DNA of 47,480 bases from an uncultured Christensenella sp. (lineage in GTDB: Bacteria; Bacillota; Clostridia; Christensenellales; UBA1242), in contig CAZKOT010000005.1 in the NCBI GenBank assembly GCA_964554475.1, positions 1 through 47,480 of the forward strand, given 5' to 3'. A model generated the notes under the pieces. That model saw nothing but the letters and a program-made list of their open reading frames with translations. It searched no databases and had not been told where the DNA came from. The position numbers and the translations under genes were made by a program. Positions 29,773 to 47,480 of this stretch are shown one piece after another. Each line of letters starts with the position of its first letter. The stretch's first letter is position 1.

Positions 29773-29979
29773 ATGGAAATTGAAAAAGCACTAATCAAAG
29801 TTAAGTGTGATTTTTATGGTTGTAAAAATATGGCTGATTTTTCATTTAAAACAAGAAAAGTTTTTCAAAAAGAATTACATTTTTGTCGAAGTTGTTTAAA
29901 CGACCTTTACAGTGCAATAGGAAAAAATATTGTTCCAAAAGCAGCTGAAACACCATTTAAGAAAAAATCAAAAAATTAA
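29773..29979 (+). CDS. small zinc-ribbon protein (CxxxxC...CxxC), unknown function
   Basis: 68 aa. AAAGGAGA RBS. Cys pairs at CDFYGC and CRSC. Confidence 0.5.
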   Translation: MEIEKALIKVKCDFYGCKNMADFSFKTRKVFQKELHFCRSCLNDLYSAIGKNIVPKAAETPFKKKSKN

Positions 29980-30172
29980 TTTGTAAATAATAATTAACGG
30001 TAGATGAAGGAAAAAAGTAATTTAATAAAATAAAAACATTTGCTTTGCGAGCAAGCAATGATGAAATAAGTACAAGTAACATAACTAAAGAAATTTTTTC
30101 TTTATTTTTTCTTTATTTGTACTTTGAACTAATGCCTAACATAAAGCAAATTTTATTTCTAAGGAGATTTTA

Positions 30173-32077
30173 ATGAAAGAAAAGAATATGCAAAAATCTA
30201 ATCAACACATATTTAATCAAATTGACGGTGGTAATTTTGAGCAAAAAATTGCAAAAGAAGTTACAGAAGATTTTAAAAAACGTCAAATGCAAAAAAAAAG
30301 CTTTGAAACACAATGGCAATTAAACATGAATTTTTTGATGGGTAATCAATACTGCTCTGTGGGTTATAACGGAGAAGTAGAAGAATTTGAAAAGCAATAT
30401 TTTTGGCAAGAGCGTGAAGTTTACAATCACATTGCTCCATTAATTGAAATTAGGCTTGCAAAACTTCAAAAAGTTAGGCCGAGTATGGCAGTTGTCCCTG
30501 CAACAGGTGATGAGAAGGATATCAAAACAGCAAAAATTTCAAAAAAAATTATTAATAGTATTTACAACAACAAAGACATCAGTGAAATGATTAATCAAGC
30601 GACTCGTTGGAGTGAAATTTGTGGAACTAGTTTTTACAAGGTAACATGGAATTCTCAAGGTGGAGATAAAATTAAAAATGTTAGCAGTGGAGAGGTTGAT
30701 ATTTCTGTTATTTCTCCATTTGAAATTTTTCCTGAAAACTCAAATTGTGAACGACTTGAAGATAATCGAAGCATAATCCATGCAAGAGGTTATCATGTTG
30801 ACTTAATAAAAAATATTTGGGGAGTTGATGTGGAAGGTGAGGAAATTGATGTTTTTTCACTTGACCAAATAAACAAAACTATAGGGGGACTAGAATACAA
30901 TGGTTTTACAACAAAATTAATTAAAACAACTAGAGAAAATTATGCAATTGTTATTGAAAAATACGAACTTCCGACAGAAGAATTTCCTAACGGTAGACTT
31001 TTAATTGTTTGTGGAGGAAAACTTTTACATGTAAATGAATTACCCTATATTAACAAGACAAATGGCGAACGCGGATATCCTTTTATTAGACAAACTTGTA
31101 TTCAAAATATTGGCTGTTTTTGGGGAAGTAGTGTAATTGAAAGAATTATTCCTATTCAACGTTCTTACAATACAATTAAAAACAGAAAACATGAATTTCT
31201 TAACAGACTTTCAATGGGAGTTTTAACTGTTGAAGATGGTTCGGTTGACATTGGAAATTTGGAAGAAGAAGGACTTAGTCCAGGAAAAATTTTAGTTTAT
31301 CGCCAGGGTTCTTCTCCGCCACGATATATGTCAAATACTTCAATTCCAATTGATTTTGCTGCCGAAGAGGAAAAACTTTTAAATGAAATTATGCTAGTCA
31401 GTGGAACTTCAGATTTGTTTAGAGACCGTTCAGCCTATACTTCAAATTTAAGTGGTGTAGCGCTTCAATTATTAATTGAACAAGATGATTCTAGATTGTC
31501 AACTTCAGCGGAGCGAATAAGGGAATGCATTAAATCGTTAGCACAACATATTTTAAGACTTTACAAACAATTTGCATTAATTCCACGTCTCACAAAAATT
31601 GTGGGAGATAATGGTGAAATTGAAGTATTTTACTTTTCAAAAGGTGATATTACAAGTGATGATATTATTTTTGAAACCCAAAATGATTTAGGTGAAACTC
31701 TTGCACAAAGACGAAGCATGGTTTTTGAACTATTAAATGCGGGATTACTTTATGATGAAAACGGTAAACTTTCAAATAGGATGAGAGTTAAAGCACTTGA
31801 CCTTTTAGGTTTTGGAATTTGGGAAAATGCTCAAGACATAAACGAACTTCATTTAAAAAAGGCATCGGGCGAAAATCTTGAACTTTTGGAAGAAAAAAAA
31901 ATTGAAGTTTTGGAAATTGACGATCATGATATTCACATTGGAGAACATATTACTTTTATGTTAGGAAGTGAATATAAAAAACGGGAAGAAACAAATTTGA
32001 AGGAAAAAATTTTGGAGCATATTAGAATGCATAAGAAATTGAAAAAGTTACAGGGGGAAATTGAAATCAAAACTTAA
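30173..32077 (+). CDS. phage portal protein
   Basis: 634 aa. WQLNMNFLMGNQY N-terminal portal motif. Its size and its position before the scaffold and capsid genes fit. AAGGAGA RBS. Confidence 0.75.
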   Translation: MKEKNMQKSNQHIFNQIDGGNFEQKIAKEVTEDFKKRQMQKKSFETQWQLNMNFLMGNQYCSVGYNGEVEEFEKQYFWQEREVYNHIAPLIEIRLAKLQKVRPSMAVVPATGDEKDIKTAKISKKIINSIYNNKDISEMINQATRWSEICGTSFYKVTWNSQGGDKIKNVSSGEVDISVISPFEIFPENSNCERLEDNRSIIHARGYHVDLIKNIWGVDVEGEEIDVFSLDQINKTIGGLEYNGFTTKLIKTTRENYAIVIEKYELPTEEFPNGRLLIVCGGKLLHVNELPYINKTNGERGYPFIRQTCIQNIGCFWGSSVIERIIPIQRSYNTIKNRKHEFLNRLSMGVLTVEDGSVDIGNLEEEGLSPGKILVYRQGSSPPRYMSNTSIPIDFAAEEEKLLNEIMLVSGTSDLFRDRSAYTSNLSGVALQLLIEQDDSRLSTSAERIRECIKSLAQHILRLYKQFALIPRLTKIVGDNGEIEVFYFSKGDITSDDIIFETQNDLGETLAQRRSMVFELLNAGLLYDENGKLSNRMRVKALDLLGFGIWENAQDINELHLKKASGENLELLEEKKIEVLEIDDHDIHIGEHITFMLGSEYKKREETNLKEKILEHIRMHKKLKKLQGEIEIKT

Positions 32078-32099
32078 CATAAAAAAAAACACAAAAAAT

Positions 32100-32365
32100 T
32101 ACAAATAACAAAATATAAAATACAAATAAGGAATAATTAATATTTAATTAATTTATAAATCCTTATTTGTATTTTGTAATTAAAAATGAATACACACCCC
32201 GCCACTCCCTCGCTTATTGACGGATTTACTAGTGTAAATCCTGCAATTTGCCAAAGGAAATTGACGCTCGGGCGGGCAAAACCCCTCTCAAGAGGGAATT
32301 ATTAAAGGACTTATAGTTTAAAAAACCTTATTTGTATTTTGTATTTTGTTTTGTAATTTGTATAG
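32100..32365 (+). repeat. composite repeat unit, copy B: AT-rich arms plus a 108-nt GC-rich hairpin core (32191..32298)
   Basis: aaaatacaaataagga (32117-32132) pairs with tccttatttgtatttt (32160-32175). ccttatttgtattttgt recurs at 32326-32342. The core contains three hairpins (ggattta/taaatcc, caattt/aaattg, ccctct/agaggg). Confidence 0.75.
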
Positions 32366-32379
32366 AAATTGGAGGATAA

Positions 32380-33039
32380 ATGGAAAAAAATATAACAAGT
32401 CCCAGGGAACAACCCATCAGTTTGCCTGCAACATCCACAGAGGTGGAAAATGTAAAAGAAAGCGTTGAAGAAAATGTGCAGCAGCAACAATGTGGCTCCC
32501 TTGGAAAATTTAAAGACGCCGAAAGTTTACTCAATGCCTATAACAATTTGCAGGCAGAGTTTACAAAAAAGTGTCAATCACTTAGTGAAATAAAATCAAA
32601 AATTGAGAACACGCAAGAAAAAAAAGAAAGCGTGCCAATTTATGAAAAAGAAAACTGGGTGGAAAAGGTAACTTCGTTTTTATGTGAAAACAAAGATGCC
32701 AAACCTTTTGCCAAAGAAATAGCACAAAACATTATTGCAGATGAAGAACTTGCTTCAAAAGAAAATGCTTTGGAACTTGCTTGGGCAAAAGTTGCATCGT
32801 CAAAATATGTTGCTCCCGAACGAGCGGTTGAAGACGATGCGTTTGTTAATAATTACATTTTAAAAAGTGAAAAAATTAAAAGTGCGGTTTTGGATATGAT
32901 GTTAAAAGAAATGGCAAAAAACAATCCGCCAAAAGTTATTGCTTCGGAGCAAAAAGGAAGTTCGGCACCGTTTTCTAAACAAAAACAAGCAACTTCACTT
33001 TCTGAGGCGAAAGAAATGGTTAAACAGATGTTTAATTAG
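32380..33039 (+). CDS. phage scaffolding protein
   Basis: 219 aa, acidic, helical. GKFKDAESLLNAYNNLQAEFTKK motif is typical of Firmicute phage scaffolds. Lies between the portal and capsid genes. Confidence 0.6.
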   Translation: MEKNITSPREQPISLPATSTEVENVKESVEENVQQQQCGSLGKFKDAESLLNAYNNLQAEFTKKCQSLSEIKSKIENTQEKKESVPIYEKENWVEKVTSFLCENKDAKPFAKEIAQNIIADEELASKENALELAWAKVASSKYVAPERAVEDDAFVNNYILKSEKIKSAVLDMMLKEMAKNNPPKVIASEQKGSSAPFSKQKQATSLSEAKEMVKQMFN

Positions 33040-33186
33040 AATGCAAAGTGAGTAAAAGTTCAAATTACATATACAAGATACAAAATACAAATAAGAAAAT
33101 TTATCCCATTTGAATTATGTAATTTATATTTTGTGATTTTGAAATTATTAATTAAAAAATTTATAAAAAATTTAAGGAGGAAGTAA

Positions 33187-34401
33187 ATGGTTACACTAAC
33201 AAGTGCCGACAACGCCTTAAAATCGGTTTATTTGGGCGTTGTTGCAAATCAATTAAATATTAATGCAAACCCTTTGCTTGCAAAAATAAAACAGTCAACT
33301 CAAGATGTTTGGGGCAAAGAAATAATAAAACTTGCACCTTACGGTATTAATGGGGGAATCGGGGCAGGAGATGAAACCGATCCACTCCCAACCGCTGCTG
33401 CAAATAATTATGTTCAATTCAAATCCACCTTAAAAAATCTTTACGGAAAAATAGAACTTTCAGATAAGGCAATCAGGGCATCAGCAAACAATGCTGGTGC
33501 TTTCGTAAATCTTTTAAATGATGAAATGGAAGGATTGATTAAAGCAAGTAGTTTCAATTTCGGAAGAATGCTTTACGGAGATGGAAGCGGACTTTTAGCA
33601 ACGGTTACAGCTTACACAGCGGCAACAAAAGCAATAACGGTTGACAGTGTTCGCAATTTGATTGAAGGTATGGTTGTTGATTTTTTTGATGGTTCAACAA
33701 AAGTAACAGATGCAAGTGGCTACAGAATTACCTATGTTGACAGAACAAACAAGCAATTATTTTTAAATCTTCCATCAAACTTTAGTGCCGAAACAATTGT
33801 TGCGACTCAAACAATTTTTATTCAAAACTCAAAAGGATATGAAATTACTGGTTTAGGAGCAATTTTTGACACTACAGCAACAACTCTTTATGGTCTTACA
33901 AAAACAGATTATCCTTGGTTAAAACCATATGTTAGTACTGAAGAAACGGAAATCTCTGACGGTTTAATCCAAGGGGCAATCGACTTTTTGGAAGAAGCAA
34001 GTGGAAGTCAAGTAAACTTTATTGCTTGTGCAAGTGGTGTTCGCAGAGTTTATCAAGAGTATTTAGGCGCATACAGAAGAAATATTGATGTTATGGAACT
34101 TGCCGGCGGCTATAAGGCAATAACCTATAACGGCATACCAGTTGTCGCCGACAGGTTTGTTCCCGAAGGAAGTATGTTTTTGTTAAATACAAATGATTTC
34201 ACCCTTCATCAACTTTGTGATTGGAAATGGCTTGAGGGTGAGGACGGCAGAGTAATAAAGCAAAATGTAGGATATCCGACCTATAGTGCAACGCTTGTTA
34301 AATATGCAGATTTAATTTGCGACAAACCTTGCGGACAAGCAGTAATAAAAAATATTTTGTCAACTGTTACAAATCCATTTCAGGTTATAGTTCAAAGTTA
34401 A
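33187..34401 (+). CDS. phage major capsid protein
   Basis: 404 aa. Strong AAGGAGGA RBS. Position after the scaffold gene. The size and glycine-rich motifs fit an HK97-fold coat protein with an insertion domain. Family not assignable by eye. Confidence 0.65.
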   Translation: MVTLTSADNALKSVYLGVVANQLNINANPLLAKIKQSTQDVWGKEIIKLAPYGINGGIGAGDETDPLPTAAANNYVQFKSTLKNLYGKIELSDKAIRASANNAGAFVNLLNDEMEGLIKASSFNFGRMLYGDGSGLLATVTAYTAATKAITVDSVRNLIEGMVVDFFDGSTKVTDASGYRITYVDRTNKQLFLNLPSNFSAETIVATQTIFIQNSKGYEITGLGAIFDTTATTLYGLTKTDYPWLKPYVSTEETEISDGLIQGAIDFLEEASGSQVNFIACASGVRRVYQEYLGAYRRNIDVMELAGGYKAITYNGIPVVADRFVPEGSMFLLNTNDFTLHQLCDWKWLEGEDGRVIKQNVGYPTYSATLVKYADLICDKPCGQAVIKNILSTVTNPFQVIVQS

Positions 34402-34450
34402 TACTTTTTCGCTTAACAGTTTAACAGTATAAAACAAAAATATTAAAACT

Positions 34451-34525
34451 TACTTCGTTTTTGACTAAATTCGCTACTTGTCCTTGCAAATTGCGAACGC
34501 AAAATTATGTTAGGGCAAGTTGAGA
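34451..34525 (+). repeat. degenerate copy D of the GC-rich hairpin element
   Basis: Retains ttacttcgt (hairpin-1 loop of copies A and C) and gcaaattgcgaacgcaaaatt (hairpin-2 equivalent), inside the outer pairing acttgtcc/gggcaagt. Confidence 0.4.
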
Positions 34526-34640
34526 AATGAGAATATTTTAAATCTTTTGTGAGTAGAGCTGAATTATTAGTGATTAAAAAAAATAATTATTTACTAATAT
34601 TCGGCTCTTTACTCATTTATTAAATTTTTAGGAAATTGAA

Positions 34641-34916
34641 ATGAAAATTAAAATTGATAGTGATGTTTTTGAAATAACGAAACGTTTAAAAGCAATTGAC
34701 AATTCGTATTTCGTTTTATTTAACACACTTAAAAATTGCTATGAACTTCACAGTGAAAATCAACCTCACACAAGTTTTTGCTTAACTTTAGCTTTTAATT
34801 GTCTAGATGAACGAACAATCAACTTAACATTAAAAACTAGAAGTGAAAATAGAAAAATATTGTTTGAAGAAATTGAAAAAAATAATCAAAAAATAATGAA
34901 AAATGAACATGTTTGA
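34641..34916 (+). CDS. hypothetical phage-module protein
   Basis: 91-aa ORF, weak RBS, no recognisable family. Confidence 0.4.
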   Translation: MKIKIDSDVFEITKRLKAIDNSYFVLFNTLKNCYELHSENQPHTSFCLTLAFNCLDERTINLTLKTRSENRKILFEEIEKNNQKIMKNEHV

Positions 34917-34956
34917 AAAATCAATTACTAAATGCTTAAATAAAGTTATTACATCA

Positions 34957-34991
34957 ATACAAAATGCCTTATACATTTTGTATGGTTTTTA
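34957..34991 (+). terminator. hairpin plus T-run inside the phage module
   Basis: atacaaaatg (34957-34966) / cattttgtat (34974-34983), followed by ggttttta. Confidence 0.6.
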
Positions 34992-35039
34992 TTCCTAAAA
35001 TAAATTTTGAAAGATTGACTTTCAATTAAAAGGAGCAAT

Positions 35040-35609
35040 ATGCAAGTCAAAGAAATTTTGGAACTGGCATGTGTTTTTTTGGGAATGGACGAAGTTTTGG
35101 AAGATGAATACTTCACCGGAAATCCTGAAGGTGGCGATGATTCAACCGAAAAAGAAATTTCAAAACTATTAAAATGCTTAAATTTAATTGTTAATGAAAT
35201 TTCATCCGATTATCTTCCTCTTTTAACCGAGGAAGATGTTGTTTTTAATGATGAAAAATTATATTACACTGAACTCGACAAAACAATTTTGGAAGTTTTT
35301 TCTTTAAAAGATTTCAATGGTCGTGCCATTTCATTTAAAACTTTTCCAGAATATATTTCTGCAAATGTTCAAAATGCTTTACTTACCTACAGTTTTCAAC
35401 CTCAGGAACTCGAACAAGATGATGTCATAATTTATTATGGTGGAAAAATTCCCCCAAGAGTTTATGCCTATGGGGTTGCTATGGAGTATCTTTTTATTAG
35501 TAGTCAAAGTGACGAAGCGCATATTTGGGAAAAACGATACAAAGATTGCCTGTGTGAGATTGTTAGAAAAAAAAGTGAAACAAAACTTCCTTCACGGAGG
35601 TGGATTTAA
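35040..35609 (+). CDS. putative head-to-tail adaptor protein
   Basis: 189 aa. AAAGGAG RBS. Its stop overlaps the next start (TAATG). The assignment rests on position and size only (comparable to P22 gp4 / T7 gp11). Confidence 0.4.
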   Translation: MQVKEILELACVFLGMDEVLEDEYFTGNPEGGDDSTEKEISKLLKCLNLIVNEISSDYLPLLTEEDVVFNDEKLYYTELDKTILEVFSLKDFNGRAISFKTFPEYISANVQNALLTYSFQPQELEQDDVIIYYGGKIPPRVYAYGVAMEYLFISSQSDEAHIWEKRYKDCLCEIVRKKSETKLPSRRWI

Positions 35610-37123
35610 TGTTTAAACGAAAAGATTTACTTTTAAAAAAAATTAAAAAGTTTAAACTCACTTATTCTTCATTTGCAAATGGAATGAACACTGAAATTGA
35701 TGAAAATCTACTGCCCATTAAATATGCAAAAAAATTTTTTAATTTTTCAGTTAAAAGTGGTGCGTTAAAATCAGGTATGGGGTTTTCAGCATTATCTTTA
35801 CCAAAATATTATACAAGCGATGAAGAAAGATTAATCCCCGTTGTTAATCCCGATGAGGCAATTCTTTCAATTTGGCATTTTCCCTACTATCATGAAGACT
35901 CAAAAATAATTAGAAATAGTATTCTTTTTTACACTTCAACCGAACAGCTATTTTTTTTCCGTACGGTTTGGCAGTTTTCATCTTACTATACTTTGTTTAA
36001 TCCAACTCAGTATTTTAGCGGAAAAATGAATGCAATATATTACAAACTTAACGGGGTTGACAGTATGCTTATTTTTGTTCCCGAAGAGCAAAAGATTATT
36101 ATATTTCCCAAAACCGAAATTCCTCAAGTCATTACAGACACGCCTAATTTGGTTGATATTTGTCTTCACTATGAACGTCTTTTTGCAATTTTGGATGGTG
36201 ACCGAAAAACACTAATGTTTAGTGCTAATCTTGATCCTACAAATTGGGATGTTGAACTTTCAGAAGGTGGATTTATTGAACTTGCTGATGAGCGTGGAAG
36301 CATTAATAAAATTGTTTCTTTTAATGACTTTGTTTATGTTTTTCGTGATTATGGAGTTACAAAAATTTCAGCATATGGCGAACAAGAACAGTTTAGTGTT
36401 ACTCAACTTTTTAAATCATCGTCTAAAATTTATGGTAATTCTGTTGCTTGTTGTGGTGATAGAATTTTATTTCTTGCACGGGACGGTCTTCATGTTTTTG
36501 ATGGCTATTCAACATCAAAAATAATTCTTAACATAGAAAGCATGTTTGAAAATATTAACAACGAGAATTGTTTTGGAGTTTATTTTAACAGTAAGTATTA
36601 TTTGGCATGTAAACTTAATTTTAATGATGATGATCAAATAGGTTGTGAAAATTATAGTGGTGGTTATGTAAATAATGCTCTTATTGAATTTGATATAAAA
36701 ACGGGTGATTTTAACATCTTACGAGGAGTTGACATTCTTAATATGATTGCAATTGAAGAATTAAATATTTCAAAACTTGTTGCTTGTTTTAATGGAGAAT
36801 TTAAAAATCGTTTTGGACAACTTGACAAGAGTGGAAAAATTTTTGGAAATGTTTTGAGTAAGCAATGGCTCTCACCCCTTTCTAATTTCGGTTATCCAAA
36901 TCAAAAAAAAATTGTGCAAGAGGTTTTAATTAAATCAAAGTCTAATTGCAAGATTATTATTAAATCAAATTTAGAAGAAAAAACTTACACGATAAAAGGT
37001 AGTGAGGTTACACAACGCGTTAAAACTAATGTTCGTGGAGAATTAATTCAAATTAAGTTTATTTGTGATGAAGAAGGAGATGTTGAAATTTCAGCACCTC
37101 AAATTATTTTTGGTGTTGTTTAA
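35609..37123 (+). CDS. putative neck/tail-hub protein (position and size comparable to P22 gp10)
   Basis: ATG 35609 lies 8 nt after GGAGG and is coupled to the previous stop. About 505 aa. Repetitive beta-rich pattern (…VYVFRDYGVTKIS…ILFLARDGLHVFDG…). Confidence 0.4.
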   Translation: MFKRKDLLLKKIKKFKLTYSSFANGMNTEIDENLLPIKYAKKFFNFSVKSGALKSGMGFSALSLPKYYTSDEERLIPVVNPDEAILSIWHFPYYHEDSKIIRNSILFYTSTEQLFFFRTVWQFSSYYTLFNPTQYFSGKMNAIYYKLNGVDSMLIFVPEEQKIIIFPKTEIPQVITDTPNLVDICLHYERLFAILDGDRKTLMFSANLDPTNWDVELSEGGFIELADERGSINKIVSFNDFVYVFRDYGVTKISAYGEQEQFSVTQLFKSSSKIYGNSVACCGDRILFLARDGLHVFDGYSTSKIILNIESMFENINNENCFGVYFNSKYYLACKLNFNDDDQIGCENYSGGYVNNALIEFDIKTGDFNILRGVDILNMIAIEELNISKLVACFNGEFKNRFGQLDKSGKIFGNVLSKQWLSPLSNFGYPNQKKIVQEVLIKSKSNCKIIIKSNLEEKTYTIKGSEVTQRVKTNVRGELIQIKFICDEEGDVEISAPQIIFGVV

Positions 37124-37173
37124 GTCATAAAGATTAAATGTTGCTTAAAAGCAAAAATATAAGGGAGGAAAAA

Positions 37174-38118
37174 ATGTATCAATTTAATTTTTCGGATGAA
37201 GATAGCGAAGAAATTGTAAAAAAGGCAACAAAACTTGATGAGTTGTTTAAATCATTTGCAGATATTGACAAAAAATTTGACCTTTCAAGTAAAATTTCAG
37301 AAGAGGACTATAACAAAAAACTTGACTTAAAACGTCAAGAGTTTGAAAAAGCAAATGACGAAGAAGTGAAAAAAGAAGCAGAAAATAGTTTGCATGATTA
37401 CAAAACAACTTCAAAAAATCAAATAGAAAATGAGTATTTAGAAAAAGGAGAAGCAATAGACAAAACATTAACATCTCTTTCTGGAAGCAAAGAGGGGGCA
37501 AAAAGCGAAATCGAAAAAGCATATAAAACGGCAAAAGATAATGCTTCAAATGATGCAATAAAACGAGGACTAGCTCGCAGTTCAATTATTGTCAATAAAC
37601 TTGCTCAATATGATGAATCATATTTAAACGAGTTTACAAAAATTGAAAAAAATTATGCTGACACGGTTTCAAAACTTGATGCAGAAAAAAATTTGTTAGA
37701 AGTTCAAAGACAAAGCGCACTTGATAATTTTGATATTTCTTATGCAGTTAAACTTTCCGAAAAAATTGAGGGAATTAACGAAAAATTAGATGCAAAAGAA
37801 AAAGAAGTGATTGAATATAACAATAAAATACAGCAATTGGAAAAAGAATTTGAATTAGAGCAACAAGAGTTAAAAAGTAAAGATGAAAAAGAAAGTAAAA
37901 AAAGCAATTTAGATTTATTAAAATATATTTCACAATACGGCTCAACCACTCTTGACCGTTTTAAAGAGCAAGAAAAATACAGCCTTGCTTACAATTATTT
38001 AATGTCATTACCAAAGGGTCAGGCAATTTTTGAACTTGAAGAAAATTCTAATTTTAAAAATAATTTAAAAACATTATTTACAAAGTTGCAGAGCGAAATT
38101 AAGAATAGAAAAAATTAG
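37174..38118 (+). CDS. coiled-coil phage structural protein (plug/needle or internal protein candidate)
   Basis: ATG 37174 follows AAGGGAGGA (track ORF starts 37138). Lys/Glu-rich heptad-like sequence throughout. Confidence 0.4.
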   Translation: MYQFNFSDEDSEEIVKKATKLDELFKSFADIDKKFDLSSKISEEDYNKKLDLKRQEFEKANDEEVKKEAENSLHDYKTTSKNQIENEYLEKGEAIDKTLTSLSGSKEGAKSEIEKAYKTAKDNASNDAIKRGLARSSIIVNKLAQYDESYLNEFTKIEKNYADTVSKLDAEKNLLEVQRQSALDNFDISYAVKLSEKIEGINEKLDAKEKEVIEYNNKIQQLEKEFELEQQELKSKDEKESKKSNLDLLKYISQYGSTTLDRFKEQEKYSLAYNYLMSLPKGQAIFELEENSNFKNNLKTLFTKLQSEIKNRKN

Positions 38119-38250
38119 TGCTTGATGGCAAGGTTAGTAAAATTGAGGATAAAAGATTTTGCTTCTTTTGCTATTTCTTAAATTTTATTATTCATTATCT
38201 AAATATTAATTATTTAAGAAAACAGATGATTTTAGACAGGAGGTTAGTGT

Positions 38251-38556
38251 ATGATTTTTGAAGATATTTTAACCATGGCAATTAGCAATGGTATTTTTGC
38301 CGTGTTATTTGTTTTTCTTCTATTCTATCTTTTAAGAGATAGTGCAAATCGAGAAAAAAAATATCAGGAGACTGTTGAAAAACTTGCAAAACATCTTGAT
38401 ATTGTAGAAGATATGAAAGATGATGTTTCAAATATTAAAGAAGATGTTTTGGAAATTAAAAATATTGTGATTTTTAAAGGAAAAAAAGAGAAAAGTCAAA
38501 ATACAGAGAACAAATATAAAAGCTTTAATTTTAATAAAGATACGGAGGAAAAATGA
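38251..38556 (+). CDS. BhlA/UviB-family holin-like protein
   Basis: 101 aa. N-terminal TM (GIFAVLFVFLLFYLL) followed by RDSANREKKYQETVEKL, as in the BhlA/UviB family. Confidence 0.5.
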   Translation: MIFEDILTMAISNGIFAVLFVFLLFYLLRDSANREKKYQETVEKLAKHLDIVEDMKDDVSNIKEDVLEIKNIVIFKGKKEKSQNTENKYKSFNFNKDTEEK

Positions 38557-38807
38557 AAATTAAAAGTTATTCGTTTTGGACTTCTCTTTCAGCGGCGACG
38601 GTAATTATTGTAAAAACAATTTGTGAAGCATTTGGGCTTGAATTTGAAGAAAAAATTGTCGGAGACATTATTATGGCAATTTGCGGACTTTTGGTTGTTT
38701 TCGGAGTTGTTACAATGCCGAGTAAAAAAGAGAGTACTGAAGTAAAAGAAAAAATTGAAAAGAAGGAAAGTGAAGAAAATATTATTGACGACAGAGAAAA
38801 TAAATAA
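38553..38807 (+). CDS. phage holin (two TM helices)
   Basis: 84 aa. FWTSLSAATVIIVKTICEAFGL...IIMAICGLLVVFGVVTMP with a charged tail. ATGA overlap with the previous gene. Confidence 0.6.
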   Translation: MKIKSYSFWTSLSAATVIIVKTICEAFGLEFEEKIVGDIIMAICGLLVVFGVVTMPSKKESTEVKEKIEKKESEENIIDDRENK

Positions 38808-38933: not shown

Positions 38934-40094
38934 TTAATTAAGCTTTGAGTAATCGTTTGTTGTTATTAGTTTTAGTGCCAATTTGGGAATATTTTTGTTT
39001 TGTTTGAAAAGTATGGGTAATAATTCTTCAGTAAGTGGATGAGTTAAATCATCACTCCCAAGTTCAATCGTGAAAGCGGGAACGTGAAATGTTTGACTAA
39101 CCCAATCAGAATATCCGCCAACAGATTGCTTTGTTTTTTCAATTTTGTACCCCGTTATTATTGCAATTTTTTTTGCAATTTTTTTGTCTCTTTCAATTTC
39201 ATTTTTTGACAATTTTTCAAAACCATAAAATATTACTTCACCTTTAGTGTGATAAGAAATTGTCATCATTGGTTTGACTTGCAAAGTAAAATCAATTAAT
39301 GCTTTTACTTCGGGTTCGCTGTTTGGCTCTTTTCCCACATAATTTAACGGAGCAGGAAAGAATACATTTGATTTTCCATTTCCCCAAAGGGCATCAAAAT
39401 TGACGTTGAGGTCCACTGCATTTGCATTCGCTTTCCATAGACTGCGAATAAAAGACGAAATGCTACGTTCCTCACAACTTGCTTCGGGCTCCAGGTCTTC
39501 GCCCTCAAAAAACTCTTGCGTGTTTTTGTTGTTCGGAGTACTGGGATGCGAGGCCAGACAGTCATTAACGCTCGCCTTTTTAATGTTTCCGCTCGCAAGC
39601 GTGCTCAACCTACAAAAACGTAAAATGTTTTTGGCGGCTCGCGGAAATAAACTCCTGCCTGTCCTCATATCCCGAGCTTTGCCTATTGCATTGTCTTCGA
39701 GGTCCATATTATGAGGATTGTAAATATTTTTTTTGTTTAATCTATAATTTTTTATAATCTGTTTTAAAAACTCTTTTTTTTCATCAAAAATTTTATTTTC
39801 TATTCCATTCATTGCAAGAAGTGCACCGTCGGGATTGCAAAGGGGAATAAAATAAATTCCTCCATAGTGCGTTAGTTTTGAAAAATCTTGTTTCAAATAA
39901 AATTTTAAAAGTTCCAAAACCAAAAGGGAAGAGACCCATTCACGAGCATGAATTCCGCCCTCAATAATAATTTGATTTTTTGAGTTGTCGCCTACATGAA
40001 AAGCATAAATATTTTGTCCAAGCACGCTTTTTCCAATAATTTGCTTTGGGCAAGTAATTTGCATTATTTCTTTTTCTAATTCTTTAAAGTTCAC
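38934..40094 (-). CDS. M14-family zinc peptidase (gamma-D-glutamyl-diamino-acid endopeptidase type) carrying a GC-rich in-frame insertion
   Basis: GGIHAREW (HxxE), LCNPDG, LWKANANAVDLNVNF, NSEPE and SYHTKGEVI motifs. GTG start at 40094 (alternative ATG at 40064). About 85-97 extra codons lie between NPDG and WKAN. Confidence 0.8.
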   Translation of the reverse strand: MNFKELEKEIMQITCPKQIIGKSVLGQNIYAFHVGDNSKNQIIIEGGIHAREWVSSLLVLELLKFYLKQDFSKLTHYGGIYFIPLCNPDGALLAMNGIENKIFDEKKEFLKQIIKNYRLNKKNIYNPHNMDLEDNAIGKARDMRTGRSLFPRAAKNILRFCRLSTLASGNIKKASVNDCLASHPSTPNNKNTQEFFEGEDLEPEASCEERSISSFIRSLWKANANAVDLNVNFDALWGNGKSNVFFPAPLNYVGKEPNSEPEVKALIDFTLQVKPMMTISYHTKGEVIFYGFEKLSKNEIERDKKIAKKIAIITGYKIEKTKQSVGGYSDWVSQTFHVPAFTIELGSDDLTHPLTEELLPILFKQNKNIPKLALKLITTNDYSKLN

Positions 40095-40258
40095 ATAAGT
40101 TAATATGAAAAAAATATTTTTTATGATAAAAAAACATTAATAAATAGATAAGTTTTTCACTAAAAAGAAAAAATTATGGTAAAGCTTTTTTGTAAAAAAT
40201 ACATTGCTTAATGTTATTTAGTAATGTTATAATAAAAAAAACAAAAGAGGAAATTATT

Positions 40259-41011
40259 ATGGTTTGGTGGCAAAATATTTTAATTGTTGTTGTTTTCTCC
40301 ATTGTGCTTTTTTATTTATATTTAAGATTATTATCAAAAGGAAGTGCTGGTGAATTTGTTGTCAAGCTTGTTTTAATTTTTCTTAACAAGAATGAGTATA
40401 AAAAATTTCATGATATAACAATTCAAGATAATGATAAAACAGTTCAAATTGACCACTTAATTATTTCAAAATATGGTGTTTTTGTTGTGGAAACAAAAAA
40501 TTATTCGGGAACAATTTATGGCAACGAAAACGCAAGTCATTTTTACAAATATAATCATCAAAAGAAGTATGAATTTTACAATCCAATCAAACAAAATTAT
40601 GGACATATATTTGCTTTAAAAAATGTTTTGGGAGACTACAAATATATTTCTGCTGTTGTATTTTCGGGGTATGCAACAAAACTGAAAATTGAAAGTACGT
40701 CTTTTGTGGGATACATTGGAGATTTACCACGATATATAAAATCTTTTAAAGAAGAACTTTACAGTGAAGAACAAGTCACTGAAATTGCAAACAAGATAAA
40801 ATCACTTTCCTTAAAAAATGTATTGTTAAAAAGCAAACATGTTAAAGATATAAAAGAACGCATGGAAGTTTATGATGAAAAAGTGGCACAGATGATTTGT
40901 CCAAAATGTGGAAACGTGCTTGTTGTGCGAAATGGACAATACGGTAAATTTATAGGCTGTTCATTATATCCAAATTGCAAATTTAAAAAGAAAATAGTAG
41001 ATAAATTATGA
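40259..41011 (+). CDS. NERD-domain protein with a C-terminal topoisomerase-type zinc ribbon
   Basis: N-terminal TM, IDHLIISKYGVFVVETKNYSG NERD core, CPKCG...CSLYPNC zinc finger. ATG 40259 follows AGAGGA (track ORF starts 40211). Confidence 0.75.
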   Translation: MVWWQNILIVVVFSIVLFYLYLRLLSKGSAGEFVVKLVLIFLNKNEYKKFHDITIQDNDKTVQIDHLIISKYGVFVVETKNYSGTIYGNENASHFYKYNHQKKYEFYNPIKQNYGHIFALKNVLGDYKYISAVVFSGYATKLKIESTSFVGYIGDLPRYIKSFKEELYSEEQVTEIANKIKSLSLKNVLLKSKHVKDIKERMEVYDEKVAQMICPKCGNVLVVRNGQYGKFIGCSLYPNCKFKKKIVDKL

Positions 41012-41485: not shown

Positions 41486-41822
41486 ATTTAATTAGGTAAT
41501 TATTTTTAAAAAAAATGGCAATTAATGAAGAAAAGCTTTTTTTTGCAAGACATTTCGCTCTTGTTCTTCGTTAAGATTTTTTTTGCATTGATATTATATT
41601 TTAAGTACAAGCATTATTTTTATTTGAGTGAAAAAAAACTGATTTCCATCATGCAAAACACTTAATTTTTTTTCTAAAGATATATTAAAAATATTGTTGA
41701 GTTTTAATACCCCTTCGCATTTATCCTAATGGATTTGGCGTTGGTTCAAACACTGCTACATTTGGCGGCGAGTGGCAAGACTATCCAAACATTTTCACTA
41801 CGAGTTTTTATAAGAAAAACTA

Positions 41823-41850
41823 TTGACACTAAATTGTTTTATGATATAAT
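41823..41850 (+). promoter_or_regulatory. near-consensus sigma-A promoter
   Basis: TTGACA (41823-41828), 16-nt spacer, TGaTATAAT extended -10 (41842-41850). Confidence 0.65.
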
Positions 41851-41856
41851 GTAACT

Positions 41857-41985
41857 AATGAATTTAGGAAACATTTTAAATTTAATAATCATTCAAAAAG
41901 TTCCTAGTGGATTAGGGGACTTAGAAATTTATAAACCAAAAAATAATGCCATGTTTTAGAGTATTCTCGACGTGGCATTTTTGTT
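41857..41985 (+). ncRNA. candidate ~125-nt small RNA or terminator-containing leader upstream of the giant ORF
   Basis: Bounded by the consensus promoter and the terminator aatgccatg (41945-41953) / cgtggcatt (41971-41979) plus T-run. No ORF inside. Class not recognised. Confidence 0.45.
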
Positions 41986-42082
41986 TATAAATGTAAGAAA
42001 TCATTTTAAATAAGGCGAAAAAATTTTTCAATTAAAACACAAGTATGAAAAAAAGCAAATTATAAAAAAATTTGAGGTACGG

Positions 42083-45000
42083 ATGAAAAAATATAATGTC
42101 AAATTAAATATTGTTTTTCAAACACTAATGATTTTATTAAGTGTGTTTAGTGTTGTAATTGGTTCATTATTTGTTTCTTATTCGTCAAATAAAGTATTCG
42201 CAAATTTTAATCCTTTAATGGTACAATATAACCAAACTCAAGAACAGGAAAGCTCAAGTGACAAAAAAAATATTGAAATTACCACCTACAAACTAAATGA
42301 TAACACTGGATACAATATTAATAGCAGTGATCAAATTTCAAATGATAATCATTTATTAAAAGATGCAAATGAAATTGGAAAAACATTTTTAAATCTTTCA
42401 GTGATTGCAGAGAGTGATTTTCCTCAAGGTGAAACAAGTGACGGCAGAGTTGGGGCATTTATTGAAACAACAAATGAGCAAAATTTGTTATTGAAACAAA
42501 ATGGAATCAATGCTTATGGTGTTTCAGGTTCACGTGTTTATATTGGTCTTAATTACAATTTTGACAAAATTTTAGGCTTTGTAAATTATGAAAATGTTCC
42601 AAAAGGAACAAAATCAAATATTGAATTTTCATCTGATACAGCGACTTCAATTGGCGGAAAAACTGTTGGTGAAATTAAGTATGGCGGAATTTTAATTCAA
42701 AAAAAGACTTCAATTAATGACATTTATCAAATGCAAACAAAGCAAGGAGAAACTTTTGATAATATTCACACAACAGACTTAACAACTTGGTTTAGTCCAG
42801 AAATCTATGTTAATGGTTATGAAACTGCTAAACTTTTTCAGTTAAGCGGACAAGACATTAATAATGGAGTTTTCATTCAAATTCAATTTGCATATGAGTT
42901 GAAATATACATATAGTTGGCATGAGCAAGCAGATTTTTGGCATTGGTGGGGTGAAGACAAAAGCGAAACGGTTTATGTCAATATGTTGGAAGTTGCCGAG
43001 TTTTATGTTGTACAAAATTCAGGAGTTGTTTCCTTTCACAATGCATCAACAACTAGCACAGTTGAAAACGAAGGAACAAGTGAGGCAGTTAGGCAGGCAG
43101 GGACAATTTTGAGCGGACACACAAGTTTTAATGGATTTAGACTTAACACTTTGGGAGCGAGTTACCAAGTTGAATATAGTAAAAATTTTTCTTCATTTGC
43201 TTTGGCAGAAGACGGGCAATTTTTCAGTGAGCAAGGCAGATATGATTTTAAAATCACAACCAAACTTGGAAAAGTTCGAGAGCATGTTATTTTTATTGAT
43301 AAGCGAGAAATTAATGATGCGGTTTGGGCATATTTTGGAGAAAGTTTGCTAACAAGCAAGGGAGATAGTGAAGAGAGTCTTGACAGTTATCGTCTTTTCA
43401 CAACTGGAGAGTTACCGACCTATTTAGCCGAGCAGACATATTATCACTTGAATAGTTTAAACAATTTATTTGCAAAAGCATATGGCAGAATTTACAAAGA
43501 ATCTGATGTTGAAGGTGACGAACGAGTTTTTATTGCAGAAATAACACAGGAAAATCCTGATGGCACAATTTTGGAGGAAGGAATTTACACAGCCGATTTT
43601 TATACTGATTATGGGGCATATGGCGAAGCTTTTGGAATTTCGAATTGTGGCAGTTCAAGCGGTGACAGTTATCATTTTATCTTCAAATTTGAAGTTGTGG
43701 ATAAGGAAACCCCGAGTAATCCATTTGTTAATGAGGAGTACTTAAACTCTTTCATTTCTGTTTCAGATTTAATGGCAAAGTATTATGCAATAACTCTTCA
43801 AAGTTCTGGAACTGGAAAAGTGGCATTTGCCTTTGCTGATTATTTTGGAGCATATAATTTTGCATACAATTACGAACGAAGTTTTATTGAAATTTTGGGA
43901 GATAATCAATTTCAATACAAATCTCTTGATGACCCTCAAATCTTAAATATTTACAACTCTCAATTTTCAGTTTTAGAGGCAGTTGATAAATATGCAGAGG
44001 AATTAATTGAAATTAAATATTTTGATGCAAGTGAGCCACAAACTTATCAAACAGCAAATATTGCCGATGAAGCGGTTTTAAATTTTGAATTTGAAGAAGA
44101 TATTGTTATATTTCTAAATGACATTGAACAAGAACTTGCAACTGATAGTAATAATTTTTTAAATGGACGAAAATATCGAAGTGTTAATTCTGACGGAACT
44201 ATTTCTGATGGAATTATTTATCCAACATTTTTGGCAGTTGGTGAATTTGAAACAAAAACCATTACTTTAATTAACAAGACTGACCCAACAATAGAGTTTA
44301 ATATTGTGTATGGTGTTTCCATTGAACAACAACTTTTAGAAGTAAATGCCCCAAGTGGAAAATATATTGTTAAAGAAGAAAACAAATACGGAACAATAAG
44401 TGAATATGAGGTTACATATATTTGTAATGGAGAAATGAGTGGAGTTGTTACTTTTGAAGTTTTCCATAACGGAGAAACGGAAACAAAAATAATAACCAAC
44501 CTTAACAATGAGCAAACAATTTTTGCAAATGGTTTTGTTTTAAAGAGTATAACAAATGAATTAGACAAGCATTCAATTATTAAAATTTCAAAGGACGGAG
44601 CGCAACAAAATATTTTTGAATTTAACGAAGTTCAAGATTTGATTTTTTATGAGGCAGGAGAATATCTTTTTACTTTTGTTGACAGACTAGGTAATTTGTT
44701 TAATTATAATGTTATAATTACTGACCAAGTTGGCTATCAAAACATTTCTTTTGTTAGTGAAGATGAAACAGTTCAAAACACATTTGCTTTTATTGGACAA
44801 ACAATAACCTTTCCAATTCCAGATGTAGCAGAGGGTTTTGAATTTATGGGCTGGCAATGTGGCGAAATTTTTGCGCCTGTAGGAGAAAATTTTACATTAA
44901 TTTCAAATGAAGACTTAGATTTTGTTGAAGTTTTACATTTTATTGAAACCACAATTACTTTATATGACGGAGAAATTTATACAACACTCACAGCAAAGCC

Positions 45001-47480
45001 CGATGACAGAGTTCTTTTACCATTTCCAGAAATGGCAGGTTTTTCATTCATTGGTTGGGGACGAGAATTAGACAGTGAATTGCATATTTATTACGGGCAA
45101 ATAACCAGTCTTGACAATGTTAGTGAAATAAGACTTGATGCACTTTGGATTGCAAATAAAAATTATGACGATAATGATATTTTAAGTGGCTTTGGTGATG
45201 AAATTGTTATCACCTATGTTGACGGAACAATATTAAACAGTTTTACTGTGACAGTTGGAACAGAAATAACACTGTCAGCACCTTCACCAAGAGCGGGTTT
45301 TGAATTTGTTGGCTGGTTTGAACGAGTTAGTGGAATTAACGGTTATATTTGGAGCGGAACCGAAGTTGTTGAGGCTGATGCAGATAACAAAATTGTTTTT
45401 GAAGCAATTTGGAAAGGTATTTCACAGCAAGAACAACAAAATGCTCCCACCTTTGCAGAAACAATAAATCCTGTTGAACGATTTTTTAATAATCTTGCAA
45501 ATGGATTAACAACCGCTTGGAATAATGGATTTGATGTTGCGTTATTTGTTTTATTAGGGATTACCGTTTTTGCTGTTGTAAGTTATTATCTTTCAAAAAA
45601 ATTGAAAATGGAAAACAGACAATGGAAAATTAATGGTGACTTTGCTCCAATTAATTTCAATACACAATACATAATGCACAATACTCAATTAAAGCACAAT
45701 GGTTTCATAAAAGAAAATAAACAAAATCAAAATAATAAAGATATTAATCAATTACTAACAAATGAAAACTTATTGCATAACGAACAATTTAATAAAGTAA
45801 AAAAAGAAAAAAATTCATATAAATTTAAAAAACCTGTAAAGTTTAAATTAAAACACTTAATGATTTGTGTTTCTTTTGTTATGTCAATACTTTTCATGGG
45901 AATTGTATGTTTAGAAAAATTGCCAAGCGGTGTTTTTGAAAATAATTCACAATCCATAGTTCAAAGTTCACAGCTGATTGATGAAGATGAAAATAAAGAA
46001 AAACATTTAACAAAAAAAGAGGTTTTAAATAAATTTAATGATTTATCAAATCAAGTAATCTCTCAATTCTCCACTCTCAATTCTCGAATTAACAATAGTT
46101 CTCAATTCTCAGGTGAAATTGGTGAAGAAGAGCAAGAAGAGCAAGTCTTAACCGATGATGAGGCTTTCTTGTTTGCTTTGGCTGCAATTGATCTTTTGGG
46201 CTTGGGTTATACTGTCTTCCCGGCAATTGCAGTAAAAAATGATGAAACAGAAATTAAAGGACTTGCTTACACAGATTTTATTGATGGATTTACACAAGAA
46301 GAGGATGAGCGAGTTTATTTCGGCAGTGGATTTGTTGCATTACCTTATCAACAAATTATAACAAATGAAGAAGTTGAAGAAGGAATTAAAATTTATTCAC
46401 TTGATGAAAATGGTGAAAAGATTATTGATGATGAGTATGGCTACATTCTTTCATTTAGCGAAAGTTATGAAAATTCTTTACACTATATATCAAATGAAAA
46501 ATATGTAACTTACAAATTAAATGGTTACAATGTTGAATATGAAATACTGCCAAACTTGGAAGAAAATTATAATTTAAGTTTGGGTGCTCTTTATTCTTAT
46601 GATCTTGAGAGAAATATTTTTGACCCAGATTTAGGGCAAGAGTTTAATATTACAGGAACAAGCATAAATAGTTTACTTGACCCAGTTATGGCACAAGCTC
46701 AATTTAATGCTTATGTTGCCGAGCAAACAAAGAATGGCTTTACTGTTGACACTCTCAATTTCTCATATATTTCACTTGAAGCATTGGATGCGGTGATTTT
46801 AGGCGAACAAGAGGAATCCTTTTTAGGGCTTTCTCCTGATGAGATTTATGAGTATGAAAAAAATCTTGCAATAAATGAATATTACGCTGTTGTCACAGAT
46901 GAAGAGGGCAACAGTCAATTAACAAAATTTGAACTTCCGCAAAACGAGCCAGAACTTTCATTTTGGGAAAAAATCAAAGCAGGTTTTTCCTCTATTGTTG
47001 TCGGCGTTGGAATGATTGTTGTTGGAGTTGTTATTGCGAGCGTTGTGAGTTGTTTTGCTTCACCTGCACTTGGGCAAATTGTTATGGGTGCATTTATGGG
47101 AGCAGGGATTGAACTTGTTATGCAAGGTATTGACGGAAAATCTCTTAGCGAAGTTAATTGGCTTAAAGTTGGAGTTGCAGCTGTTAGCGGAGCAATTTGT
47201 GCAATTCCAGGAATGGCTTGGTGGGGTGCAGCATTAGTTGGCGGACTTTCTCAAGCAGCAACAACAGCAATTGATGGAGGAAGTCTTGAAGAGTGTCTGC
47301 TATCCTTTGCAACAGGTGTGGCAATTGGTGTTGCAATTCATTTTGCAGGAAAATTACTTAATAAAGCTGTTAGTAAAATAAAAGGAAAGCTTGATTGCTT
47401 TGTTGCTGGAACATTAATACTTCTTGCCGATGGAACAGTAAAAACAATTGAAGATATTAAAGTTGGCGACAAGGTAAAAA
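42083..47480 (+). CDS. giant multi-domain surface / polymorphic-toxin-like protein, 3' end beyond the window
   Basis: I translated this frame by eye and met no stop from ATG 42083 (GAGG RBS) to base 47480. It has an N-terminal signal anchor and three G(F)xF(I/V/M)GW B-repeat modules (about 44750-45420). Two internal TM helices follow, then a Gly/Ala-rich hydrophobic region and a Hint block-A motif, CFVAGTLILLADGTVKTIEDIKVGDKV, from 47396. Confidence 0.85.
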   Translation, partial: MKKYNVKLNIVFQTLMILLSVFSVVIGSLFVSYSSNKVFANFNPLMVQYNQTQEQESSSDKKNIEITTYKLNDNTGYNINSSDQISNDNHLLKDANEIGKTFLNLSVIAESDFPQGETSDGRVGAFIETTNEQNLLLKQNGINAYGVSGSRVYIGLNYNFDKILGFVNYENVPKGTKSNIEFSSDTATSIGGKTVGEIKYGGILIQKKTSINDIYQMQTKQGETFDNIHTTDLTTWFSPEIYVNGYETAKLFQLSGQDINNGVFIQIQFAYELKYTYSWHEQADFWHWWGEDKSETVYVNMLEVAEFYVVQNSGVVSFHNASTTSTVENEGTSEAVRQAGTILSGHTSFNGFRLNTLGASYQVEYSKNFSSFALAEDGQFFSEQGRYDFKITTKLGKVREHVIFIDKREINDAVWAYFGESLLTSKGDSEESLDSYRLFTTGELPTYLAEQTYYHLNSLNNLFAKAYGRIYKESDVEGDERVFIAEITQENPDGTILEEGIYTADFYTDYGAYGEAFGISNCGSSSGDSYHFIFKFEVVDKETPSNPFVNEEYLNSFISVSDLMAKYYAITLQSSGTGKVAFAFADYFGAYNFAYNYERSFIEILGDNQFQYKSLDDPQILNIYNSQFSVLEAVDKYAEELIEIKYFDASEPQTYQTANIADEAVLNFEFEEDIVIFLNDIEQELATDSNNFLNGRKYRSVNSDGTISDGIIYPTFLAVGEFETKTITLINKTDPTIEFNIVYGVSIEQQLLEVNAPSGKYIVKEENKYGTISEYEVTYICNGEMSGVVTFEVFHNGETETKIITNLNNEQTIFANGFVLKSITNELDKHSIIKISKDGAQQNIFEFNEVQDLIFYEAGEYLFTFVDRLGNLFNYNVIITDQVGYQNISFVSEDETVQNTFAFIGQTITFPIPDVAEGFEFMGWQCGEIFAPVGENFTLISNEDLDFVEVLHFIETTITLYDGEIYTTLTAKPDDRVLLPFPEMAGFSFIGWGRELDSELHIYYGQITSLDNVSEIRLDALWIANKNYDDNDILSGFGDEIVITYVDGTILNSFTVTVGTEITLSAPSPRAGFEFVGWFERVSGINGYIWSGTEVVEADADNKIVFEAIWKGISQQEQQNAPTFAETINPVERFFNNLANGLTTAWNNGFDVALFVLLGITVFAVVSYYLSKKLKMENRQWKINGDFAPINFNTQYIMHNTQLKHNGFIKENKQNQNNKDINQLLTNENLLHNEQFNKVKKEKNSYKFKKPVKFKLKHLMICVSFVMSILFMGIVCLEKLPSGVFENNSQSIVQSSQLIDEDENKEKHLTKKEVLNKFNDLSNQVISQFSTLNSRINNSSQFSGEIGEEEQEEQVLTDDEAFLFALAAIDLLGLGYTVFPAIAVKNDETEIKGLAYTDFIDGFTQEEDERVYFGSGFVALPYQQIITNEEVEEGIKIYSLDENGEKIIDDEYGYILSFSESYENSLHYISNEKYVTYKLNGYNVEYEILPNLEENYNLSLGALYSYDLERNIFDPDLGQEFNITGTSINSLLDPVMAQAQFNAYVAEQTKNGFTVDTLNFSYISLEALDAVILGEQEESFLGLSPDEIYEYEKNLAINEYYAVVTDEEGNSQLTKFELPQNEPELSFWEKIKAGFSSIVVGVGMIVVGVVIASVVSCFASPALGQIVMGAFMGAGIELVMQGIDGKSLSEVNWLKVGVAAVSGAICAIPGMAWWGAALVGGLSQAATTAIDGGSLEECLLSFATGVAIGVAIHFAGKLLNKAVSKIKGKLDCFVAGTLILLADGTVKTIEDIKVGDKVK

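Follow-up and report, generated by a model that had tools for sequence, protein, structure and literature searches.

The window, that is the whole stretch of 47,480 nucleotides from contig CAZKOT010000005.1 of an uncultured Christensenella sp. (assembly GCA_964554475.1), has a G+C content of 30% and ends at its 3' side within a giant open reading frame (ORF) on the plus strand (42083..47480). Its product is predicted to be a polymorphic toxin precursor of approx. 1,900-2,000 residues. The ORF starts with an ATG at 42083 after a GAGG, comprises 1799 codons in the window and is open at its 3' end; its frame contains no stop from 42014 through the last base. No competing ORF of note was found on the opposite strand. 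An earlier note on this DNA, made from the letters alone, had singled out positions 46985-47480 as a glycine-zipper-like membrane block followed directly by the N-terminal motif of a Hint (intein-type) domain. This part is the 3' end of the one plus-strand ORF and has no separate status; all features described below for this protein lie on the same strand.

Hydropathy of the deduced protein showed four strong hydrophobic segments (residues 6-35, 1147-1172, 1256-1281 and approx. 1631-1668). The first is an N-terminal signal-anchor or transmembrane helix (42098..42187) with a Kyte-Doolittle value of 2.33 and a sum of -0.8 on a Hessa-type scale; all Hessa sums given here are simple 19-residue sums. 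It is followed by a large N-terminal ectodomain region (residues 141-925, 42503..44857; BLASTP E 2e-43 to L047:2088-6005) and by one Listeria-Bacteroides repeat (Flg_new, residues 1047-1086, 45221..45340), which matched PF09479 with 27.1 bits (cut-off 27). The transmembrane helix of residues 1147-1172 (45521..45598, Hessa sum -1.3) is followed by KKLK, and the signal-peptide-like transmembrane helix of residues 1256-1281 (45848..45925, Hessa sum -3.2) comes after a very basic linker. Residues approx. 1285-1625 (45935..46957) form a conserved ectodomain that is common to all lipoprotein-type relatives (alignment A5), with Y190, G217 and D223 in A5 numbering as invariant positions. AlphaFold2 gave an alpha/beta model of this ectodomain with a predicted local distance difference test (pLDDT) of 79 overall and >90 for residues approx. 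80-220 (∼150 residues); the model has no PDB match by Foldseek at E ≤ 0.001, and the ectodomain belongs to no Pfam family. On the giant ORF as a whole, Pfam yielded only the Flg_new repeat, which lies at its cut-off, and sub-threshold Hint N-termini, with no RHS_repeat in the 1799 residues, and NCBIfam matched nothing useful.

The region of residues 141-925 is homologous to a separate 1306-residue gene in L047/L048, with the same layout in L067. There, this gene lies directly upstream of, and overlaps, a gene for a lipoprotein toxin of approx. 790 residues that corresponds to window residues approx. 1290 onward. Since the two parts match genes that are separate elsewhere, the window ORF is an in-frame fusion of a surface protein of approx. 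1300 residues with a C-terminal transmembrane anchor (upstream) and a lipoprotein toxin of approx. 790 residues (downstream). Everything is kept at the junction (approx. 45520-45930): the old stop-transfer helix, which is the counterpart of the upstream gene's C-terminal anchor (residues 1147-1172), a basic low-complexity linker and the old signal peptide, which is the counterpart of the lipoprotein signal peptide in the two-gene relatives (residues 1256-1281). The fused form recurs in six relatives of 1883-2144 residues (P0008, P0010, P0013, P0016, P0033 and P0152) and is thus not an assembly artefact. Four of them (P0008, P0010, P0013 and P0016) are full-length with 1890-2009 residues and share the overall architecture of the window protein. 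The closest is P0016 (1890 residues) with 46.5% identity over window residues 22-1799 and 214 more residues thereafter.

The five-helix block and the start of the Hint domain

Between the conserved ectodomain and the Hint start lies a Gly/Ala-rich block of five helices (residues 1626-1771, 46958..47395), delimited by alignments A2 and A4, a profile search and AlphaFold2. Helix H1 (46961-47056) is autonomously transmembrane by score and is followed by H2 (47063-47131), H3 (47159-47200), H4 (47216-47272) and H5 (47285-47392). The AlphaFold2 model, calculated from a 36-sequence alignment, reached a pLDDT of 87 with helices at model residues 8-39, 42-64, 74-87, 93-111 and 116-151, after which the first strands of the Hint begin. 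Seven positions of the block (G50, G54, G84, G102, D112, G113 and G126) are each conserved in ≥90% of the 36 members, E58 is mostly conserved, and VNWxKVxVxAVSGA and TxIDGGS stand out as motifs. An exhaustive search of 1.84 billion proteins with a profile of six members retrieved 179 cluster representatives (clustered at 50% identity) at E ≤ 1e-3 and 103 at ≤1e-10. A word-indexed homologue search with the block profile found two proteins, as low-complexity words swamped it. Judged by this conservation, the block is a true protein family and no compositional accident.

The description as glycine-zipper-like applies loosely: Gly, Ala and Ser make up 37% of the block, which contains two GxxxG and three relaxed [GAS]xxxGxxx[GAS] motifs. 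However, a strict GxxxGxxxG is missing from the block and the relaxed motifs sit in marginally hydrophobic helices. The block has no match in Pfam or NCBIfam, and a PDB search with its profile gave nothing below E 0.8. Across block members, Pfam returned only scattered, insignificant matches to miscellaneous membrane families. Foldseek of the block model against the PDB reached a best E of 0.035 with a template modelling (TM) score of 0.29; the top hits were four-helix membrane proteins of the Tim17/22 family and are too weak to use. Literature searches found no description of the block or its family. Neither the block nor the ectodomain nor the giant N-terminal protein has a described counterpart in Pfam, NCBIfam, the PDB or the literature searched.

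The block is followed by the first 28 codons of a Hint domain of the A-type BIL/PT-HINT kind (47396..47479), with the putative nucleophile Cys1772 (Cys1 of the Hint) encoded at 47396-47398; the window end cuts the domain. The frame of the Cys codon encodes ...FSSIVVGVGMIVVGVVIASVVSCFASPALGQIVMGAFMGAGIELVMQGIDGKSLSEVNWLKVGVAAVSGAICAIPGMAWWGAALVGGLSQAATTAIDGGSLEECLLSFATGVAIGVAIHFAGKLLNKAVSKIKGKLD-CFVAGTLILLADGTVKTIEDIKVGDKVK, which are the last 174 codons of the giant ORF, and the residues and the Cys codon quoted in the earlier note match the ORF translation exactly. Its assignment to Hint block A (C-x-x-x-x-T, DG and IE-x-I-x-x-GD) was borne out by three Pfam Hint models on a 165-residue fragment, namely Hom_end_hint (E 6e-6, the best match), Hint (0.0025) and Hint_2 (0.008), as well as by a Hint hidden Markov model (HMM) built from family members (E 2.8e-6). 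Hom_end_hint and Hint_2 align from profile position 1-2 and Hint from position 10, on or just before the Cys. Of the 28 Hint residues in the window, 22 are identical to those of P0002, a relative with a full PT-HINT domain.

Relatives of the window protein and other contexts of the block

The first homologues were retrieved with the last 520 residues of the window ORF. P0001 (46% identity) and P0002 (65% identity) matched the PT-HINT model PF07591 with E-values of 1.4e-19 and 4.8e-27, respectively, and the homologues scored 58-95 bits against a cut-off of 27.7. Of the two models that had been proposed as a check, PT-HINT is found in the homologues, though not on the window itself, and PT-TG in neither. 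Streptomyces matches reaching upstream of the Hint were also tried as relatives with PT-TG plus PT-HINT; they are Rhs-PT-HINT proteins without the block.

The counts on Hint presence and tails refer to 153 family representatives. A Hint is present in 24 of them and always abuts the block. Cys1 was found in all 24, [ST]xxH at approx. position 66-71 in all 21 that reach that far, and a terminal HN in 19 of 21 complete domains. With lengths of 134-149 residues, these are mini-Hints without an endonuclease insert. The 19 post-Hint tails fall into approx. 15 mutually unrelated clusters, and all except one are 74-110 residues long. Pfam assigned AHH to three tails, LHH to two and a colicin/pyocin DNase (Col-Pyo DNase) and GIY-YIG to others; furthermore, the tail is Tox-GHH in L046 and Ntox24 in L049. 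The earlier note had left a pre-toxin Hint to be told from a canonical intein by the downstream blocks. The catalytic residues of the relatives, followed by non-homologous nuclease tails, speak for the former. With the support of these relatives, the Hint stretch of the window is best read as the N-terminus of a pre-toxin (A-type BIL/PT-HINT) Hint.

A small ORF lies directly downstream of the toxin in L046 (172 residues), L049 (166 residues) and L069 (234 residues, overlapping the stop) and is probably an immunity gene. In L049 (1-1654), a PT-HINT end with Ntox24 is followed by the 166-residue ORF and then by a stand-alone remnant (P0007) made up of block helices 3-5 and Hint positions 1-102, directly upstream of a gene for a 1310-residue surface protein. 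With a trafficking part, variable toxins, putative immunity genes and orphan cassettes, the family agrees with the general definition of a polymorphic toxin system by Zhang et al. 2012 (PMC3482391); the window gene itself shows the conserved part alone.

Two side observations concern the toxin ends. A Cys is located 2-4 residues past the terminal HN in almost every complete Hint of the family (HN-FC, HN-YC, HN-SAC, HN-AAC, HN-RNC and so on; P0001, P0008, P0010, P0012, P0013, P0015, P0016 and others). This Cys might serve as an offset nucleophile, be used for a disulfide or for lipidation, or belong to the recombination joint. In L046 (912-949), the Tox-GHH of P0002, the closest partial homologue, runs on in a different frame, in overlap with the last part of the PT-HINT ORF, which indicates a frameshift inside the toxin by sequencing error or real decay.

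Most block members (129 of 153) lack a Hint. Their commonest type is a protein of 650-850 residues with an N-terminal lipoprotein signal, and a lipobox stands at the signal position in at least 61 of 89 stand-alone relatives. These lipoprotein toxins consist of a conserved ectodomain of approx. 330 residues, the block and a tail of approx. 170-300 residues. The tails of 72 Hint-less members (e.g., P0003, P0004, P0006 and P0009) form one homologous family with a weak WHH/HNH signature (…LHEGTDG…GHYGG…) and are probably an undescribed nuclease toxin domain.

In a metagenome scan, the core of H2-H5, which lacks helix 1 and covers profile positions 36-137, was also found in RHS_repeat proteins with Sec signals, mostly from human-gut assemblies, which likewise provided most metagenome loci of the family. 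In the Rhs proteins, the Rhs end motif (…YCDNNPVxRxDxxGxFW…) immediately precedes the core, and a tail of approx. 60 residues comes after it. The core is present in many short orphan C-terminal (CT) cassettes as well, and the Rhs-CT orphans start upstream of the block. Given its occurrence in at least three delivery contexts, namely a giant fusion, lipoprotein toxins and Rhs toxins, the block core is a portable toxin-adjacent module.

Membrane embedding, proposed release and alternative readings

The five helices differ in hydrophobicity. H1 has a Kyte-Doolittle value of 2.75 versus 1.6-1.8 for H2-H5, and its Hessa sum is -0.7 kcal/mol (family median -0.1), compared with -0.8 to -3.2 for the other three transmembrane helices of the ORF. 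For H2-H5, sums of +2.4 to +5.8 were obtained (family medians 3.6-6.4). As the Rhs carriers have signal peptides, their H2-H5 core presumably passes through Sec, and together with the weak scores this leaves only H1, which the Rhs-borne copies lack, as a secure transmembrane span. The membrane block that had been proposed therefore holds for helix 1, but H2-H5 are marginal.

The domain before the block can be placed outside the cytoplasm because of the lipobox in the relatives and, in the window, the signal-like helix with its basic N-terminal flank. The family-wide net charge is -0.5 before H1, about 0 in the H1-H2 turn, -0.8 in the H2-H3 loop, +0.4 in the H3-H4 loop, -2.4 in the H4-H5 loop and +2.25 after H5. 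These charges fit an arrangement of five spans that starts outside and ends inside, and with one or three spans the C-terminus would equally be inside. An H1-H2 hairpin with peripheral H3-H5 would put the Hint outside. Since only 0-15 residues separate Cys1 from helix 5, the suggestion of the earlier note that the cut is made at the membrane surface is reasonable, although either side of the membrane is compatible with it.

Taken together, we consider it likely (roughly 80%) that the window's 3' end codes for the pre-toxin part of a very large polymorphic toxin from a low-GC gut Firmicute, which is exported by Sec, tethered to the membrane and equipped with the block and a Hint release device. 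The block is joined to Cys1 of the Hint via a short basic helix, and most likely it tethers the part of the protein next to the toxin and mediates its contact with the membrane. By comparison with the 24 Hint-bearing relatives, the window Hint would continue for approx. 110 more residues with [ST]xxH and a terminal HN. A hypervariable toxin tail, mostly an HNH-type, GIY-YIG or other nuclease, would come next, followed by a small overlapping immunity ORF whose product would neutralise the toxin in the producer. The toxin itself would be used in interbacterial competition.

HINT domains directly before a toxin have been described as releasing peptidases of polymorphic toxins (Zhang et al. 2012, PMC3482391), and a BIL domain occurs in class 1 MafB toxins of Neisseria (PMC4287609). 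If the cleavage chemistry of A-type BIL domains (PMC7765530) applies to this Hint, an N-to-S acyl shift at Cys1 would create a thioester at the junction of block and Hint, which would be hydrolysed just where the last hydrophobic helix ends. The terminal Asn, by cyclising, would cut the junction of Hint and toxin and free the nuclease. The conserved Cys, to which the earlier note had ascribed the liberation of the toxin, would thus act at the other end of the Hint. The Hint may hence be a release device that works independently of the toxin, and the coding sequence of Hint and block could provide the homology for swaps of toxin/immunity cassettes. Hint-bearing members carry small, extremely diverse toxins and Hint-less ones mostly one large tail, a contrast that fits a Hint acting both as toxin-independent release mechanism and as conserved recombination handle.

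Several points weigh against this interpretation. All Hint models on the window remained below their gathering cut-offs, because just 28 residues are present, and PF07591 gave no score there; this model starts approx. 7 residues past Cys1, with approx. 21 model positions in the window. The downstream DNA of the locus, whose recovery had been proposed in the earlier note, was not found in genome, viral and metagenome collections or by exact-protein look-up. The scan of genome contigs gave distant Hint matches only, viral contigs gave none, and metagenome contigs gave 19 relatives at ≤48% identity and not the locus itself. Exact-protein look-up of the neighbouring ORFs yielded nothing or a 2-kb Logan contig that stops before the toxin gene. 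It is thus by way of its homologues that the window gene is credited with a complete Hint, a toxin and an immunity gene. The candidate immunity proteins match no Pfam family, including no Imm family, and are so called because of their position. Self-cleavage is a prediction for every member of the family. Finally, the topology is ambiguous: the charges and an odd number of spans would put Hint and toxin on the cytoplasmic side of the producer's membrane, which is a poor fit with the simple release of an exported toxin.

The strongest alternative, which we regard as possible yet rather unlikely, is that the block is delivered with the toxin and serves as insertion or translocation domain in the target cell, in the manner of colicins or the diphtheria T-domain, and does not anchor the producer's protein. 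In the Rhs copies, H2-H5 are placed between the cleavage motif and the toxin of approx. 60 residues and would stay attached to the released toxin. In addition, H2-H5 are too weakly hydrophobic for stop-transfer, and in the 129 Hint-less members the toxin is fused straight to the block. In the subfamily of the window, however, the Hint separates block and toxin, so that cutting at either junction parts them. The strongly hydrophobic H1 would arrest Sec export in the producer membrane, and the block has no structural similarity to known translocation domains.

Rather doubtful is the proposal that the block is a new membrane module which keeps a nuclease, caged by the Hint, at the cytoplasmic side of the membrane in the producer, with the ectodomain of approx. 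1,600 residues outside, until release or export is triggered externally. It is in keeping with an odd number of spans (one, three or five), the acidic H4-H5 loop and the basic tail after H5, and the lipoprotein signals of most relatives. If it were true, the block would be a monoderm counterpart of the arrested export of CdiA, or a self-contained export conduit as proposed for PrsW toxins.

The latter combine a multi-pass membrane peptidase with a C-terminal toxin, mainly in Gram-positives (PMC3482391). Among monoderm toxins, they come closest in concept to a multi-helix membrane module linked with toxin processing, and the window protein resembles them in its hydrophobic multi-helix module coupled to processing and a C-terminal toxin, with processing proposed at the membrane. 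They differ in every particular, though. PrsW has eight transmembrane helices, is itself the protease and is N-terminal, whereas the block helices contain no protease motifs, follow a huge ectodomain and share no sequence similarity with PrsW; here, cleavage would come from the separate Hint.

It is very improbable that the block is a divergent PT-TG domain (PF14449), of which the earlier note had been reminded. PT-TG is found in LXG/WXG and PT-HINT architectures (PMC13483458), so that PT-TG plus PT-HINT is a known arrangement. Like the block, it is a conserved module with no assigned function between trafficking domains and variable toxins, and helix 5 of the Hint-bearing subfamily contains a TG dipeptide. 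This dipeptide is limited to that subfamily and not conserved across the family, however, and PF14449 gave no match at E ≤ 1, be it with the fragment from the window, the complete ORF, nine relatives (P0001, P0002, P0003, P0006, P0007 and four metagenome members) or any of the 36 aligned members. The block also has other conserved motifs and a bona fide transmembrane helix, and the Streptomyces PT-HINT proteins that were retrieved share the Hint alone with the family.

Equally little speaks for the Hint start being a decayed remnant, i.e. a truncated or orphan cassette with neither a functional toxin nor self-cleavage. Truncated fragments of block and Hint do exist (P0007 in L049, P0079 and P0139), and the window stops before any diagnostic downstream residue. 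Yet the known remnants are short stand-alone fragments without N-terminal parts, while the window has an intact ORF of 1799 codons with all upstream modules, whose frame runs through the motif at its end. Moreover, the identity to P0016 extends to a protein whose Hint and tail are complete, and the Hint residues shared with P0002 belong to an intact domain.

A canonical self-splicing mini-intein, with the host protein resuming after HN plus C/S/T, is extremely improbable: block A is common to inteins, Hom_end_hint is the best Pfam match and the +1 residue is S or T in five of 21 relatives, but it is A, F, R, D, N, Y, G or K in the other 16 and never Cys, what comes after the Hint are toxin domains that bear no relation to one another and no conserved extein, Hint-less relatives do not have joined flanks, and PF07591 beats Intein_splicing in every complete homologue.

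With regard to known systems, the Hint part is a further member of the well-known PT-HINT polymorphic toxins (class 1 MafB, Streptomyces Rhs-PT-HINT and FhaB/CdiA-type proteins; PF07591), and the block is a new building block. Common features are a mini-Hint with Cys1, TxxH and HN at the boundary of conserved and hypervariable parts, a nuclease toxin with a small ORF after it and orphan cassettes. In contrast to the PT-HINT proteins retrieved from Streptomyces, Paenibacillus and Christensenella, the Hint of this family is fused to the block, and apart from the one Flg_new repeat the trafficking part of the window protein contains no Pfam family. Among the Rhs/YD-repeat toxins, which in Gram-positives are of the WapA type, RHS_repeat proteins from the human gut have the H2-H5 core between Rhs end motif and toxin in their C-terminal cassettes, and orphan CT arrays are present. 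Unlike them, the window protein lacks RHS repeats, adds helix 1 and has a Hint between block and toxin.

The polymorphic toxins that Gram-positive gut anaerobes carry are little charted apart from the LXG toxins of type VII secretion (T7SS/LXG) and WapA-type Rhs proteins, and the window locus belongs to an unannotated family. The reuse of the block in three delivery contexts marks it as a functional module and makes it a target for studying how toxins cross, or are held at, the monoderm membrane. Members with and without a Hint provide a natural comparison for Hint domains as universal release-and-recombination adaptors.

Genomic surroundings of the toxin gene

The window is chromosomal and encodes PPDK, MetK, ZnuA, NrdD, acetyl-CoA carboxylase subunits and FabK-like and FabF proteins. 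A phage-like block (26722-38807) ends approx. 3 kb upstream of the toxin gene and comprises a P22-like portal (30173-32077), DUF7934 (37138-38118), the holins BhlA (38251-38556) and Phage_holin_1 (38553-38807) and several large ORFs without Pfam match. The nearby holins and portal led to a phage origin being considered; among 50,697 phage records, however, none matched the phage-like block or the toxin at the level of protein or DNA, and their adjacency was treated as incidental.

Between them lie genes for an M14 peptidase (carboxypeptidase) on the minus strand (38934-40094) and for a nuclease-related NERD protein that has a zinc ribbon of the Top1 type (40211-41011). The 600 nt upstream of the giant ORF (41486 to 42082) are otherwise non-coding. 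They contain a promoter-like TTGACA-16-TATAAT with TG extension on the plus strand (41823..41850), approx. 230 nt upstream of the ORF, which agrees with the sigma-70 consensus in 12 of 12 positions; it is a consensus match alone, and in total the region has no more such sites than shuffled sequence would lead one to expect. A NERD protein identical to that of the window is encoded on a 2-kb Logan contig from run SRR8925737.

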